64,000 bases of DNA from a virus, in IMG/VR virus record IMGVR_UViG_3300023174_000077, positions 32,001 through 96,000 of that record; one strand, written 5' to 3'. The notes under the pieces are model-generated. The model had not been told where the DNA came from and made no database searches. It saw nothing but the letters and a program-made list of their open reading frames with translations. Of the stretch, positions 36,472 to 41,605 are shown in pieces; the stretch's first letter is position 1; the number at the start of each line of letters is the position of its first letter. A program made the position numbers and the translations under genes.

Positions 36472-36807
36472 TTATTTATACAATTGTTCCACAATATATT
36501 CAGAATACTCTATAGATGTATCTATTTGATTGCTAATATAGTTTATATAATACATACTATATTCAAAAGTTTTATATGCCTCTGTTTCTTCCATTTCTAA
36601 TGGTATATATTCTGTGTCGTTTAATATAGCATCAATTTTCCTATCTCTATTTATGATAGTCATTTCTCTTTCAACCTCACCCATAGTGGCTGGGTCTATG
36701 CTCATACTATATTTCCCAGTCATCCCATTTTTGGTTGTTAAAGTCTTCATCGGAATAGTCTTCTTCTTCATTTTCTTTTTGTTTTTTCTTTTGTAAAGAA
36801 CTACCAA
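36472..36807 (-). CDS. mini-protein with INRDRKIDAIL motif
   Basis: True start probably inside the overlap with the polymerase 3' end (for example MTGKY). Confidence 0.55.
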   Translation of the reverse strand: MVVLYKRKNKKKMKKKTIPMKTLTTKNGMTGKYSMSIDPATMGEVEREMTIINRDRKIDAILNDTEYIPLEMEETEAYKTFEYSMYYINYISNQIDTSIEYSEYIVEQLYK

Positions 36808-38255
36808 ATATATCTAATACAACAGAAAGTCGTTTTGTTATTTCTGGAAGTCCCAATGGTTCGATAATAGAATTAATTGGTGATAAAATACACTTATCAA
36901 ATTGTTCATCTAAATCAATTTCAGGAGCAAATTCAATAGGATAAGAACCACGATTAAATGCAAATACAGAATTCATTTTTTTATCTTTGCAGTAATAATA
37001 CTTAATTTTAGAACCTGATTTTAAAAATTCATATTTAAATTGTAAATCTTTATTTCTATGTAATAACCAATTATAATACGCTGATGCTTTTACTGCAAAA
37101 TGTGCTCCATTTACAAATACTAATTTATTTTTATCATCTAAAACTTTTTCATTATAATTAGAACAAGAAGATTGCATACTGATTTCATCAATCCGATCAG
37201 GTACACATAAATCAAATTCTTTTTTAAGATTTTTAACCAATTTGAGCAATTCACGAATGTTAAATGTATCTGGATGACTAAATAAATATTTAATGATGTC
37301 CACAATTTTATCTCTTGCAAAAGATGGAGTTGATCTTCTAACAAGTTCAACACCTTTTGGATAAATATAATTTAATCTTTCATATGGGATGCCATCTTCA
37401 AATACAATATGTTGAATATATTTCTTTTTAGCAATATAAATAACTGATTCGCTAATTCTTTCTAATTCAAAATCTTCTTTATTTGAAACGCCATAACTTT
37501 CAGCATATTCTTCTAAACATTTTTTGAAATATCCAGCATATCTATAATAGTCAAGACCATGTATAAAATCTAATTCATGAGCCCAATTCCATTTAAGTTT
37601 TTCTTCTAAATTATTATCTTTAATAAAAGTTTCAAAATTACGATTTTTAATCCATTTACCATCAACGATAAACATATCTATATCTTCAATATTTTGTATA
37701 TCTTCTAATTTAGAATAAACACCTAAACAATTTGGATTATCTGATGCAATTTCTTCTCTACCATGTAGAATTATATGAGCTTTTGTTATTTTATTTAAAT
37801 TGGAAAAGAAAAGATTTTTCCAATCTGAATGTGTAATAGCTGGTTTGAATGATACGAATAAACTATCAGTATCTGCATAAATACTAACTGGTTCTTTTTT
37901 TTCGTTAATTTGTTTTATATTTCTAATACAAATCTTTTTATGTAATTCGGTATCATTATGCCATTGATTATACCAATAATCTTCATTAACACGATTCATA
38001 GTTTTTGTTAAATCTCTACCTTGAGCCGTAATTGAAGAAGCCACATGATTATTAAACAAGACGAAATAGGACGCAGCGAAGGCGCCATATGATCCATTCA
38101 ATACTAATTTTAGTTTTATTACCCCCAACTAATTTTTTAGTTGGGGGTTAAAAAAGAGCGAGCTGTAAGGCATTATAATAATCTGCCTCTTTTTTCAACT
38201 CGCTCGCTTTATTTTTTAGTGACTCTAATTCAATTAATTTTTCTTCTTTTGTCAT
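36707..38255 (-). CDS. family B DNA polymerase, C-terminal subunit (gp43B-like), interrupted by a 43-nt coding gap
   Basis: 38255-38154 encodes MTKEEK...YYNALQLAL; 38110-36707 encodes KLVLNGSYG...ITAQGR...YADTDS...KKKY...KGVE..RRST; joining them restores motif B QxALKxxxNxxYG (predicted 501 aa). Confidence 0.85.
38111..38153 (-). other. 43-nt coding gap, candidate translational bypass element
   Basis: mRNA: CUU [UUU UAA CCCCCAACUAA AAAA UUAGUUGGGGG UAAUAAAA CUA] AAA; in-frame stop, 11-12 bp hairpin, Leu codons on both sides. Confidence 0.7.
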
Positions 38256-38329
38256 AGATATTGTATAGATTTTTGTTAAAAAGTTGTTAAAAAAGTCGTA
38301 GGGCGTTATGATAATTTTATATATAATAT

Positions 38330-39094
38330 ATGAAAGAAAATAAATATTATATTTATGCCTATTTAGATCCTTCTAAACCAATTCAAAAAACTTATGAAGA
38401 TTTTTCATTAATATATGAACCTTTTTATATAGGTAAAGGTAAAGAAGGTAGAAAATTAGTTCATTTAAAAGATTATAAATTAAAAAATAAAACGCATTTG
38501 TCTAATAAAATTTTAAGCATAAGGAATAATGGTTTAGAACCATTTATAGTGGAATTATATGATAATTTATCAGAAGAAGAGTCTTTAATTATTGAAAAAA
38601 ACTTAATTTCTATTATAGGTAGAAGAATACTAAAATCAGGTCCTCTTGTAAATATAACTGATGGTGGTGAGGGTGTTTCTGGGCTTAAACATACATTCGA
38701 ATCTAGAATTAAAATGTCAAATAAAGGCGAAAATCATCCAAATTGGAATAAGAAACTATCAGAAACAACTTGTAAGAAAATATCAGAAAAATTAAAATTA
38801 AATAATCCTATGAAAAATCCAGAAATTTCTGAAAAAGTAAGATTAAAAAATATAGGAAGAACTCCTTGGAATAAAGGTTTATCCACACCAAAAGATATTT
38901 GTAAAAAATTAAGCGATAAAAAAATAAAATATTTTAATATACAATTAATATCAAAGAAAGATAATACAATACAAACATTTTATAGTATATATGATGTTAT
39001 GTCTTTTTTAGGAAAATGCTATCGTTCAGTCTATTTATACCTTCAAAAAAACGAATCCAAAGATTATTTTATCAAATATGAAATAAAAAACTGA
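38330..39094 (+). CDS. GIY-YIG homing endonuclease, free-standing
   Basis: YYIYAYLDP...FYIGKGK..R, IEKNLI, LVNITDGGEG, NUMOD3-like NHPNWNKK, TPWNKG. Confidence 0.9.
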   Translation: MKENKYYIYAYLDPSKPIQKTYEDFSLIYEPFYIGKGKEGRKLVHLKDYKLKNKTHLSNKILSIRNNGLEPFIVELYDNLSEEESLIIEKNLISIIGRRILKSGPLVNITDGGEGVSGLKHTFESRIKMSNKGENHPNWNKKLSETTCKKISEKLKLNNPMKNPEISEKVRLKNIGRTPWNKGLSTPKDICKKLSDKKIKYFNIQLISKKDNTIQTFYSIYDVMSFLGKCYRSVYLYLQKNESKDYFIKYEIKN

Positions 39095-39967: not shown

Positions 39968-40291
39968 TTACAAGCTTCTTCCATCTTTTTTCCATTTTTT
40001 TTGATTTTCCTCCGATAATCTCTTATATTCATCAGTATCTTCTATATTTGTTGCTGTAAAATCTTTATCATATAATATAGAATCAATTTTCCCTTCTCTA
40101 TTTTTAGCAGTTATACTTGCAGCAAAATTATCAAACATTATAGTATTTAGGATATCTTTATCAATTTCTTCTTGAAATATTCTTGCGAGTTCCGTTTCAA
40201 CATCTATACCACAATTTTGTTTTATATCATCTATTTCTTCTCTTGTAATCGAAGCTGTTATTCCTAAAATATTATTCATCGTCATCATCAA
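39968..40291 (-). CDS. mini-protein: major-capsid internal fragment fused to NREGKIDSIL module
   Basis: ITASITREEIDDIKQNCGIDVETELARIFQEEIDKDIL vs gp23 KAxxSxELAQDLxAxHGxDAxAELxxILxxEIxxEI. Confidence 0.6.
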   Translation of the reverse strand: MMMTMNNILGITASITREEIDDIKQNCGIDVETELARIFQEEIDKDILNTIMFDNFAASITAKNREGKIDSILYDKDFTATNIEDTDEYKRLSEENQKKWKKDGRSL

Positions 40292-41089: not shown

Positions 41090-41605
41090 TTAATTCTTTG
41101 ATAGAAAATTGTATAACTCAATTGTATTCTTTACTTGATAGCCAATATCACTTAATAATTTAACTAATGATCTTAAATGTTCTATATGTGTTTCGATTAA
41201 TTCGGTTGCTCTTTTAGCTTCTACTAAGTGTCCGTCTATTATAGATGTCATATGACTATTTGAAACTTTACCATTAACATTTAATGCTGATTTACCAAGA
41301 GCATACCAAACAATTTTATCTTGTTCTTGTCTTTTATATTTAACTTTTTCTTTGGAAAGTTTTTGTAAAAAAACTGCAATTTCATTTTGTAATCTTTCTC
41401 TATGAACTAATGCATCAACCTGTAAATCAACTATTTTTTGTGCATTTTCTGAATTATATTGCAATTTAGCAATTTCTAAAATTGGTTGTATATCCCTTGT
41501 CCATTCTTCTCTTTTAACAGTGAAAAATTCCTCCATTCGATTATTAGATTCCTCTTTTTTGGCAATAGCTTCTAATTCTTCTTTTTCGTATAGGGTAAAT
41601 GACAT
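41090..41605 (-). CDS. helical protein, possibly UvsY-like recombination mediator
   Basis: Coiled-coil ending ..DIGYQVKNTIEL, similar to the UvsY C-terminus. Confidence 0.4.
   Translation of the reverse strand: MSFTLYEKEELEAIAKKEESNNRMEEFFTVKREEWTRDIQPILEIAKLQYNSENAQKIVDLQVDALVHRERLQNEIAVFLQKLSKEKVKYKRQEQDKIVWYALGKSALNVNGKVSNSHMTSIIDGHLVEAKRATELIETHIEHLRSLVKLLSDIGYQVKNTIELYNFLSKN

Follow-up and report, generated by a model that had tools for sequence, protein, structure and literature searches.

A PolB subunit gene interrupted within motif B

The window analysed here, a stretch of 64,000 nucleotides, is a piece of a 122-kb record from a huge freshwater phage whose genome is about 22% complete. 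Its minus strand carries a stand-alone gene for the PolB C-terminal subunit, which is interrupted by 43 nt after codon 34, inside motif B. The first segment (38154..38255, minus strand), taken from the list of open reading frames, runs over 34 codons from the ATG to a putative take-off codon CTT and is homologous to the initial 34 codons of the uninterrupted 474-codon genes at the related loci L003 and L004. The second segment (36707..38110, minus strand) extends from the motif-B lysine codon AAA to the stop and matches Pfam PF00136 with 63.6 bits; it shares about 66% identity with L003 and L004 and 91% with L005. The three elements from which a preliminary description of this DNA had started, namely a 35-codon ORF (38255-38148, minus strand), a hairpin and a continuation in the +1 frame, were all found exactly where they had been placed. 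The ORF ends with CTT (38156-38154), TTT (38153-38151) and TAA (38150-38148), with TTT standing between take-off codon and stop as described. Past the gap, the +1 frame reads AAA TTA GTA TTG AAT GGA TCA TAT GGC within a 473-codon frame (36707-38128). A skip of 43 nt had been said to restore the polymerase motif, and the resulting reading indeed equals that of the contiguous, gap-free homologues. The standard genetic code fits the record, in which long frames span 104 of the 122 kb; since TAA terminates 74 of 86 long frames, the TAA of the window is a real stop. PolB is also split in the relatives (4/4), where the C-subunit gene and a frame of 501-515 residues, which carries PF03104 and the N-terminal portion of PF00136, are over 100 kb apart. 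A search of this 22%-complete record for PF03104, which marks the N-terminal subunit, gave no match.

The coding gap itself (38111..38153, minus strand, as are all elements named in this paragraph) is absent from gap-free homologues and consists of TTT, TAA, a hairpin, a spacer and a landing triplet. It follows the putative take-off codon CTT for leucine (38154..38156), the last codon in common with gap-free homologues. Read from the sequence, the zero-frame stop TAA (38148..38150) is the second gap codon. Sequence and folding both reveal a 12-bp hairpin with a 4-nt loop (38122..38147), which begins 6 nt past the take-off codon; it is built from a C5 run, giving five C-G pairs at the base, and seven more pairs, and an extra A-U pair is possible at 38148/38121. 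Take-off codon and gap together have a folding energy of -20.1 kcal/mol. An A-rich spacer (38114..38121) leads from the hairpin to the putative landing codon CTA, again leucine (38111..38113), which was assigned by the comparison of clusters given below. Upstream of the gap lies a second stem-loop with its 5' arm at 38196..38205 and its 3' arm at 38156..38165, the latter stopping 2 nt short of the take-off codon's last base. This GC-rich stem and its inner helix had been drawn in the preliminary description, and folding of the 60 nt up to and including the take-off codon gives them as the minimum-free-energy structure (-22.4 kcal/mol).

The exact gap hairpin occurs once in the window, where none is expected from 100 shuffles, and it is the only C5...G5 hairpin of the 122-kb record. 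With one copy in 122 kb it does not have the distribution of a dispersed byp-, REP- or MITE-like repeat. It was absent from the viral_contigs scan, from which the record of the window itself was perhaps excluded. Searches of Rfam with the gap gave no family match up to E = 1, and a length of 43 nt, an internal stop and an out-of-frame position do not agree with a self-splicing intron, whose catalytic core takes hundreds of nt, or with an intein, which would be in frame.

On the other side of the polymerase start, and divergent from it, lies a free-standing GIY-YIG/NUMOD3 homing-endonuclease-like gene (38330..39094, plus strand; Pfam PF22945, 40.2 bits, and PF07460, 31.9 bits), the start of which is 75 bp from the polymerase ATG. 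A tblastn search of the first 36 loci with its protein gave no match, and homologues were found only in the metagenome set. They occupy the same position at L059 and L042, where the gaps sit at other codons.

A family of gaps in related phages

Comparison with related phages revealed that 54 of 111 resolved loci are gap-bearing, with the window as an additional case. They comprise 41 distinct single gaps and one gene with two gaps, which fall into 36 sequence clusters at five motif-B codons; all these counts are taken over related sequences, so the events are not independent. L025, L039 and L087, where the sequence begins past the gap site, were excluded, and L040, which is intact, and L097, whose contig starts with a site-2 gap, were read by eye and stand outside the counts. 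The gaps are 36-49 nt long, and their length modulo 3 is 0, 1 or 2 in 7, 17 and 12 clusters, respectively. Gap-free relatives have one ORF with the same ATG, and alignments confirmed the expectation that they would be contiguous across the motif. The site of the gap does not track the host-gene tree, which was built without L021, L031 and L038, genes fractured by a split intein. The gene with two gaps, L067, would require two hops merely 8 codons apart.

Both parts of the interrupted ORF are under selection. For the short upstream ORF this selection is purifying: the leader has a dN/dS of 0.149 in the 41 distinct gap-bearing genes versus 0.125 in intact genes, and synonymous sites are saturated when the window is compared with L015. 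Downstream of the gap, the frames are open in all 35 genes examined (L003-L038). The gap-bearing L034, whose genome is 98% complete, has a single C-subunit gene and no second copy.

The triplets that flank the gap agree in their first two bases in 29/36 clusters (21/22 at sites 1-4), compared with 4 of 504 control triplets, and the take-off codon has a final T in 32/36 clusters. At site 2, 10 of the 11 clusters have CTT as take-off codon and the remaining one has CTC, and the landing triplet is CTA in 11/11; the same leucine is encoded by CTA in 8 of 52 intact genes. L019 and L035 carry near-identical hairpin and spacer cores at site 1 and site 2, with end triplets that are different yet matching. 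Seven of the 36 clusters have unmatched triplets, six of them among the 14 Tyr-site clusters, where AAC, AAT, AGC or GAC precedes the resume codon. Re-pairing cannot be the sole landing rule. A stop is the first gap codon in 4/36 clusters and the second in 25/36, and 7/36 have no stop among the first two; in the window and in 25/36 clusters alike, matched codon and stop are thus one sense codon apart. The spacers measure 5-16 nt with 58% A, and spacer triplets able to pair early are depleted (6 observed, 13.3 +/- 2.2 in shuffles). A near-copy of the landing site had been pointed out in the gap; it is present within the hairpin of the window and was not seen in other elements. In-frame ATG, GTG or TTG codons before the resume codon are absent from 13/16 site-1 and site-2 elements, and several of these elements have a stop immediately before the resume codon.

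The position of the hairpin is fixed. The distance from the take-off codon to the start of its C-run is 6 nt in 32 of 41 elements and 7 nt in another 7, and the free energies of the gap hairpins range from -18.6 to -34.5 kcal/mol. Because MAFFT aligned the hairpins poorly, covariation was drawn from a separate comparison of 37 distinct hairpins. Pairs 5-9 each show 4-7 standard pair types; each of these positions is reached by 35-37 hairpins, of which 33-37 are paired there. The hairpin takes in the take-off codon in the long variants L023, L042, L046, L111 and L112, unlike in the other elements. The hairpin pattern was found at 0 places in the near-complete genomes of three intact relatives, and in a gap-bearing near-complete relative at the polymerase gap and at one terminator-like intergenic site. 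The 5' stem-loop is likewise conserved in the 11 site-2 elements, with compensatory changes at 4 pairs. Its mean energy is -24.6 kcal/mol at site 2 (n=11) and -21.6 kcal/mol at site 1 (n=6), and the stem is lacking in the 49 intact genes, with means of -7.3 kcal/mol (versus site 2, p = 1e-7) and -6.6 kcal/mol (versus site 1, p = 4e-5).

A divergent upstream endonuclease gene, either HNH-like DUF7487 or GIY-YIG, accompanies 38/46 gap-bearing and 0/41 intact loci under a 1000-nt rule; these rows were not deduplicated, and some metagenome loci seem identical to viral loci, having contigs of the same length and the same gaps (L081/L021, L099/L018). L110, a counter-example that falls outside this rule with a flank of only 396 nt, has an intact gene and an upstream endonuclease fragment. 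The DUF7487 protein gave no phmmer match in PDB sequences and no Foldseek match at E <= 0.001. Its C-terminal domain reached a best VIA-align Z of 7.8 to 4h9d_A (rmsd 4.4 A over 88 residues), and DUF7487 proteins share an invariant D-H...N...N pattern. Together, the structural comparison (Z <= 7.8) and the invariant pattern are suggestive of an HNH-like protein, but are not proof of it.

A candidate translational bypass and its rivals

We propose that the 43 nt are probably a programmed translational bypass linked to a homing endonuclease, which would be analogous to, and not homologous with, T4 mobA/gene 60. A bypass of this kind fits the comparative data better than any rival, and it is favoured because of the matched codons, the fixed and covarying hairpin, the 5' stem-loop, the selection on the leader, the scarcity of restart codons and the linkage to endonucleases. 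The ribosome would first translate the 34-codon leader. Once peptidyl-tRNA-Leu occupies CUU in the P site, decoding in the A site would be impeded by the GC-based hairpin 6 nt further on, and the UAA one codon past would terminate those ribosomes that continue reading. The tRNA would then release CUU and the mRNA would slide; both the hairpin and, in the wake of the ribosome, the 5' stem-loop would refold and thereby provide a forward bias. The same tRNA would re-pair at CUA, 43 nt downstream, and decoding would restart at AAA, the motif-B lysine, to give a single polypeptide collinear with the gap-free homologues. Such a hop from CUU to CUA would need one tRNA that decodes both codons; ARAGORN found no tRNA genes, be it in the window or in the whole 122-kb record. 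On the level of DNA, the insert probably disrupts the recognition site of the adjoining homing endonuclease, which would cleave the intact motif. It would hence serve as an immunity mark and be a passenger of a mobile cassette, as in T4 mobA/gene 60.

The preliminary description had treated the window as an independent bypass. The comparison of relatives supports the reading as a bypass and at the same time shows that the case is not isolated, being one of a large family at five codons. These elements may well form a second, independently evolved family of 36-49-nt bypasses, carried by HNH-like/GIY-YIG endonucleases at five neighbouring motif-B codons in huge freshwater phages. Its apparent rules would be a wobble-read NNU take-off codon, a hairpin 6-7 nt further on, an A-rich spacer and a landing on NNA or UAC by the same tRNA.

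The exact homologous reading would equally result if the gap were removed from the RNA, either as a micro-intron or by hairpin-guided cleavage and ligation, so that the ribosome reads a contiguous message. A structure-guided enzyme might require just such a 5' boundary, fixed 6-7 nt from a conserved hairpin, and splicing needs no matched landing triplet, which 7/36 clusters do not have. However, 36-49 nt is far below the size of any self-splicing intron, there is no Rfam match, and the distance of the 3' boundary to the hairpin varies with the spacers of 5-16 nt. Both triplets moreover remain synonymous (CTT 10/11, CTA 11/11), even though an intron would include one of them and leave it free to change, and neither the zero-frame stop at the gap start (29/36 clusters) nor the 5' stem-loop would have a role in splicing. 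We know of no bacterial or phage system that splices such hairpins from mRNA, and we regard this reading as quite improbable. It is also unlikely, if slightly less so, that no joined protein is made, whether the gene is simply broken by a selfish insert or yields a 35-residue peptide and a separate product from TTG 38128. This in-frame TTG of the window, 18 nt before the resume codon, would retain the motif-B lysine, and PolB of this clade is already divided into two distant genes; a second copy of the C-subunit gene is possible because only 22% of the genome is in hand. Against this stand the conserved leader with its dN/dS of 0.149, the downstream frames, every one of which is open where examined, and the single C-subunit gene in the 98%-complete genome of L034. 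Furthermore, the 13/16 site-1 and site-2 elements without an in-frame start, several with a stop right before the resume codon, offer no place to restart, gaps at sites 3-5 would divide motif B itself between two peptides, and TTG 38128 sits within the 3' arm of the hairpin.

Translation of the insert, by read-through or reassignment of the stop combined with a frameshift, would add a loop to the fingers. The gap length is a multiple of three in 7/36 clusters, and Lak phages, which are related huge phages, reassign TAG. Yet 29/36 clusters are out of frame, TAA, TAG or TGA all occur in gaps, the standard code suits the record, as judged by its TAA-terminated frames, and the +1 frame of the window meets TAG within the hairpin. 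An additional 12-16 residues inside the motif-B helix would also seem hard to square with function, and this reading appears highly improbable. The chance that assembly or sequencing errors created the insert, which the preliminary description had still allowed for, is practically negligible. Hairpins can upset assemblies, and nothing else speaks in its favour; contigs of two further studies match the insert with 0 differences (X2 over 37715-38158, X3 over 38046-38266), and 54 related loci have analogous gaps. The contig X1 spans the entire insert as well and may be the source sample. Among the contigs of other studies, none was found that joins across the insert.

Four narrower readings were dropped during the analysis. 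A -1/+1 slip on a T-run does not agree with L012 and L037, which have no T-run, or with the TAG in the +1 frame of the window. Take-off at the codon beside the stop would add or replace a residue of the motif-B helix and has no matching landing triplet. The G-run was considered as an internal Shine-Dalgarno site, but the two starts inspected, those of the polymerase and endonuclease genes, show no such motif upstream. An intrinsic terminator would call for a T-run after the hairpin, which is absent on both strands.

Comparison with known systems

To our knowledge, efficient long-range ribosome hopping in bacterial systems is in print for a single system, T4 gene 60 together with its topoisomerase-gene homologues. 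The mitochondria of Magnusiomyces capitatus reportedly contain 'byps', GC-rich hairpin inserts that are skipped between matching triplets. Byps are tens of nucleotides long and lie in an AT-rich genome, dispersed over many genes; the polymerase hairpin, in contrast, is single in 122 kb and linked to a homing endonuclease.

The proposed bypass resembles the 50-nt bypass of T4 gene 39/mobA/gene 60 (Manning & Atkins 2022; Bonocora et al. 2011, cited there) in that a replication gene is split and its downstream piece is interrupted by a short gap after a few dozen codons. According to Manning & Atkins 2022 (bioRxiv 10.1101/2022.08.31.505936), gene-60 homologues have paired codons, wobble pairs among them, that shift by one codon between clades. 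They also have a stem-loop, a stop or rare codon, a gap whose 3' part is A/U-rich, and a cassette that is kept after loss of the endonuclease. The same applies here to the pairing of the putative take-off and landing codons including wobble, to their shift by one codon between clades, and to the stop at or near the gap start, the stable stem-loop, the A-rich 3' part and the 5' stem-loop. An adjacent homing endonuclease (HNH, in some cases GIY-YIG) that is sometimes lost while the gap stays is a further likeness to T4 mobA/gene 60. The preliminary description had seen a difference to gene 60 in the use of synonymous rather than identical codons; this contrast falls away, as the gene-60 homologues in Manning & Atkins 2022 likewise use wobble pairs.

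Other differences are clear. The host gene is PolB, with the gap in its conserved catalytic motif B (PF00136), whereas gene 60 encodes a topoisomerase and its gap lies where a foreign N-terminal extension ends. Descent from a MobA cassette would imply a topoisomerase II large-subunit host with N- and C-terminal extensions, and the host here is PolB. The endonuclease gene is divergent and upstream, unlike in T4, where it is found between the two gene halves; insertions occupy five codons here and two in the gene-60 system. The hairpin begins 6-7 nt past the take-off codon, while the gene 60 hairpin contains this codon. Most gene-60 homologues have the stop immediately after the take-off codon (Manning & Atkins 2022, 10.1101/2022.08.31.505936), unlike most elements here, with their one sense codon in between. 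No sequence likeness between the polymerase gap and gene 60 was noticed when the two were compared by design. Stem-loops 11-12 nt from the P-site codon prevent binding of A-site tRNA (Bao et al. 2020), and the polymerase-gap hairpin begins 1-3 nt closer to the P site than the spacing tested there.

Two further phage systems share single aspects. T4-like phages can have a split PolB, gp43A/gp43B, whose halves in some cases flank a GIY-YIG endonuclease gene (Petrov et al., as referred to by Dassa et al. 2009). There too, two genes make up PolB and the split falls in the fingers region, with homing endonucleases involved, but the halves are more than 100 kb apart in the complete relatives studied here, and the C-terminal gene is gapped in addition. 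In Streptomyces phages, terminase genes contain a candidate UUA-dependent bypass with a rare codon and a proposed regulatory role (Antonov et al. 2023, PMC10732093). A phage gene would in both cases require a hop for the full-length protein; neither a rare codon nor a regulatory link is evident here. Literature searches on polymerase bypass and on DUF7487 found no published polymerase bypass. The word "polymerase" is absent from the main text of Manning & Atkins 2022, and metagenomic cases in its Table S1 and File S1 might bear on the matter.

If our reading is true, an unrelated cassette resides inside the catalytic motif of an essential polymerase, and gene callers will label such polymerases broken or truncated. 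The family offers dozens of natural variants, with five take-off codons, varied stop positions and stem lengths, matched and unmatched landings and one double gap, and this series is a ready mutational set for the requirements of ribosome take-off, sliding and landing. Programmed bypass would then be a recurring evolutionary solution.

The split polymerase gene and its insert

On the minus strand of the window, a short ORF of 35 codons (38255-38148) ends with CTT TTT TAA and is directly followed by a hairpin with five basal C-G pairs (38147-38122), an A-rich spacer of 8 nt and the triplet CTA (38113-38111). The downstream frame of 1404 nt opens at AAA; its product matches PF00136 from profile position 157 onward (63.6 bits) and corresponds to the C-terminal portion of a family-B polymerase. 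The preliminary description had proposed that a coding gap of 43 nt (38153-38111) is skipped from the take-off codon CTT (38156-38154) to the landing triplet CTA, and all its coordinates were correct when checked on the sequence. Likewise, the 5' stem that it had drawn (38205-38196 with 38165-38156) came out as the minimum-free-energy structure when the 60 nt up to and including CTT were folded. Contigs from two further studies span the gap with 0 differences, and no contig lacks it. Gap-free homologues had been expected to read motif B contiguously, and those of LR756502 and LR745206 indeed do so within an unbroken ORF of 474 codons from the homologous ATG. Since the exonuclease and motif-A half forms a separate frame of 501-515 codons more than 100 kb off in four near-complete relatives, PolB is split in this clade. 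Judged by its sequence, the window's polymerase gene is a stand-alone C-terminal subunit gene plus a 43-base insert. A related-strain contig (run X8, record 8) matches window 37811-38113 with 18 differences in 303 nt; the match ends exactly at the landing codon, 13 further letters are unmatched, and this strain probably has a different gap variant or none.

The source record comprises 122,094 bases (the window being bases 32001-96000), with a CheckV completeness of 22% and a G+C content of 26.9%. Stop-to-stop frames of at least 150 codons span 104 of the 122 kb, TAA terminates 74 of the 86 such frames, and the record fits the standard code. Its nearest named records are the uncultured huge phages LR745206 and LR756502 (635-642 kb, about 66% protein identity); Lak megaphages and phages of Bacteroidota hosts are further off. 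Contigs containing the stretch originate from lake and freshwater metagenomes. Among the replication genes, an ORF of 107 residues (39968-40291) weakly resembles a segment of Gp23, the major capsid protein (21.6 bits, below the cut-off); another, of 171 residues (41090-41605), weakly matches UvsY (19.4 bits).

The gap hairpin is single-copy in the window and in the whole record. The three complete relatives whose polymerase genes are intact contain no C5...G5 pattern; in a gap-bearing complete relative it occurs at the gap and at one site between convergent genes, nowhere else. With a single copy here and a pattern scarce or absent in these four relatives, we ruled out that the hairpin is a dispersed repeat. 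The other C5...G5 hairpin of the 465-kb relative (L133:1500-1520; G002:C1:147775-147794) is located where one gene ends, just ahead of the convergent gene's end, and looks like a two-way terminator, not a coding gap.

A family of gaps at five codons of motif B

Scans of viral contigs and, with query alignment A1, of metagenome contigs yielded 114 further loci. The site was resolvable in 111 loci, 57 intact and 54 gap-bearing, the window being an extra gap-bearing case. We obtained 41 distinct single gaps, 36-49 nt long, and in addition a double gap. The gaps form 36 clusters separated by more than 12% and follow one of five motif codons: Ala in 5 clusters, Leu (where the window's gap lies) in 11, Val in 5, Ser in 1 and Tyr in 14. 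In L005, the window's closest relative (91% identity downstream), the gap follows the Ser codon, and another endonuclease gene occupies the corresponding intergenic spot. The double-gap locus L067 (2280-2520) has gaps of 41 nt (Leu codon) and 37 nt (Tyr codon), 8 codons apart and with one hairpin each; no endonuclease gene was found in its 2296 nt upstream.

The anatomy of the gaps is uniform. From the last shared codon to the hairpin's C-run the distance is 6 nt in 32 of 41 elements, 7 nt in seven and 5 nt in one; the remaining element, L033, was misparsed by the script and has 6 nt by eye. Every element contains a hairpin of 9-12 bp, or 18-19 bp in five long variants (-18.6 to -34.5 kcal/mol), frequently with tetraloops such as GAAA and UUCG. 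Among 37 distinct hairpins, the initial four or five pairs are C-G, while pairs 5-9 each use 4-7 standard pair types and are paired in 33-37 of the 35-37 hairpins reaching the position. Of the 36 clusters, 25 have a zero-frame stop as the second gap codon, 4 as the first and 5 further on; the 2 clusters without such a stop are both out of frame. The stop's third base pairs with the base following the G-run in 32 of 37 hairpins (G-C 15, A-U 10, U-A 6, U-G 1). The spacer is mostly 5-9 nt long with 58% A, and triplets that might pair too early are depleted in it (6 seen versus 13.3 +/- 2.2 in 2000 shuffles).

The landing triplet and the take-off codon agree at their first two bases in 29 of 36 clusters, versus 4 of 504 triplets at other offsets; six of the seven unmatched clusters are at the Tyr site. 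At the Ala, Leu, Val and Ser sites, 21 of the 22 clusters match in this way (CTT/CTA 10, CTC/CTA 1, GTT/GTA 4, GTT/GTT 1, GCT/GCT 2, GCC/GCT 1, GCT/GCA 1, TCT/TCA 1), the exception being GCT/TCT. Tyr-site gaps end in TAC (4 clusters), TAA (3), TAG (1), AAC (3), GAC (1), AAT (1) or AGC (1). Intact genes use varied synonymous codons at the gap sites (for Leu, n=52: CTT 19, TTG 10, TTA 9, CTA 8, CTC 6), and the near-fixed CTT...CTA is therefore not background codon usage. Although hairpin and spacer are nearly the same in L019 at the Ala site and L035 at the Leu site, their end triplets are GCA and CTA, respectively, which indicates that the end triplet depends on the insertion site. Since take-off codons mostly end in U (32 of 36 clusters) and landing triplets mostly in A (17 of 22 from Ala to Ser; UAC in 4 Tyr-site clusters), this pattern suggests that a wobble pair would be released at take-off and a Watson-Crick pair of the same tRNA would capture the message at landing.

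In Ala- and Leu-site elements, the Gln-Leu-Ala codons just before take-off have their reverse complement in the Ser-Glu-Leu codons, which lie some 13 codons upstream. The 60 nt ending at take-off fold with a mean of -21.6 kcal/mol at the Ala site (n=6) and -24.6 at the Leu site (n=11), versus -6.6 and -7.3 in the corresponding stretches of 49 distinct intact genes (Mann-Whitney p = 4e-5 and 1e-7). RNAalifold recovered the stem from the 11 Leu-site elements, with four pairs changed on both sides; in L048 the changes also switch amino acids on both arms. Excess stability is small at the Val (-11.0 kcal/mol, p = 0.03) and Tyr sites (-9.6, p = 0.001).

Linked endonuclease genes

Divergent from the window's polymerase gene lies a GIY-YIG/NUMOD3 gene (38330-39094, plus strand). 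Most relatives have in this spot a Pfam DUF7487 protein of 270-390 residues that matches PHROGs annotated "homing endonuclease" and has an invariant D-H...N...N pattern in its C-terminal domain. In an AlphaFold model (pLDDT 82.9) the best structural alignments of this predicted domain were to HNH nucleases, with 4h9d_A first (Z 7.8, rmsd 4.4 A over 88 residues) and Cap5, a phage HNH and Cas9 HNH domains next; Foldseek alone gave no match for the model at E <= 0.001. Using a panel of eight endonuclease proteins and loci with at least 1000 nt of flank (rows not deduplicated), we found that 38 of 46 gap-bearing loci, versus 0 of 41 intact loci, have an endonuclease gene no more than 400 nt upstream, leaving eight gap-bearing loci without one.

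Three loci are nearly identical downstream: L010 has neither gap nor endonuclease, L018 has both and L023 has the gap only. In this sub-clade a gene for a 177-residue protein lies upstream of the polymerase gene (L010:3317-3850, L018:2444-2977, L023:3317-3850), and in L018 the endonuclease gene between the two marks the cassette insertion point. The tree of the downstream part is not followed by the gap site, L022 (Ala) and L026 (Tyr) being identical downstream; this would fit an exchange of the gene's 5' end together with the endonuclease gene. At a contig end, a DUF7487-type endonuclease gene fragment (L110:1-400) lies directly upstream of an intact, gap-free polymerase gene with Ile replacing Val in the motif. 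This possible endonuclease without gap had too short a flank for the linkage count.

A proposed ribosomal bypass and its alternatives

We consider it likely, from sequence and analogy, that the 43 nt are a coding gap skipped by the ribosome, because the design repeats that of the T4 mobA/gene 60 element and its homologues in an unrelated gene. The published gene-60 elements have paired take-off and landing codons with wobble differences and one-codon moves between clades, a stop or rare codon, a stem-loop with covariation, A/U richness in the 3' part and a degree of 5' structure, as well as a homing endonuclease whose target is protected by the insert and which can later be lost (Manning & Atkins 2022). 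Several features fit a bypass poorly: the stop mostly does not adjoin the take-off codon, seven clusters lack a matched triplet and seven an early stop, and L067 would need two hops. With its spacing of 6-7 nt, the hairpin comes to lie around +10, counted from the first base of the P-site codon. Stem-loops at 11-12 nt lodge in the A site and prevent tRNA from binding (Bao et al. 2020); the present spacing is close, but 1-3 nt short. A hairpin so near the blocking distance might block the A site, which would explain take-off despite a sense A-site codon, with the stop one codon later as a backstop.

That no joined product is made seems unlikely to us, as the genes appear to be alive by sequence. 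Downstream frames are open in all 35 examined (L003-L038), and median dN/dS of the 33-codon leader is 0.149 across 41 distinct gap-bearing genes (intact genes 0.125), with 0.185 for the first 100 codons past the motif; between the window and L015 leader dN is 0.078 with dS saturated. The 98%-complete genome of L034 (Tyr-site gap) has one C-subunit gene, and no second was found. Restart cannot be the rule: in 13 of the 16 Ala- and Leu-site elements, the stretch from the preceding stop to the resume codon lacks any in-frame ATG, GTG or TTG, several elements have a stop immediately before that codon, and at the other sites the break lies inside motif B. Removal of the gap at the RNA level, which we regard as slightly less probable still, would explain the exact restoration equally well and would not require a matched triplet; however, no machinery is known, a variable 3' cut would be required, and both conserved triplets, the stop and the 5' stem would be left unexplained. 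Translation of the insert is very improbable, and an artefact is practically out of the question given the identical gap in contigs of two further studies.

Further breaks occur in this gene: in L038 (2146-5077), L021 and L031 it is interrupted at motif C, immediately past the aspartates. The L038 break holds an ORF of 371 codons with an intein half on either side (Pfam Intein_splicing, 33.7 and 23.1 bits, below the cut-off in both cases), an arrangement like that of the 'fractured genes' described by Dassa et al. (2009), and L029:4034-5830 has a contiguous intein (40.9 bits) at the motif-C position.

Full-text searches found no published bypass in a polymerase gene and no publication on DUF7487. 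The main text of the gene-60 survey places its cases in topoisomerase genes only, without the word "polymerase" (Manning & Atkins 2022).
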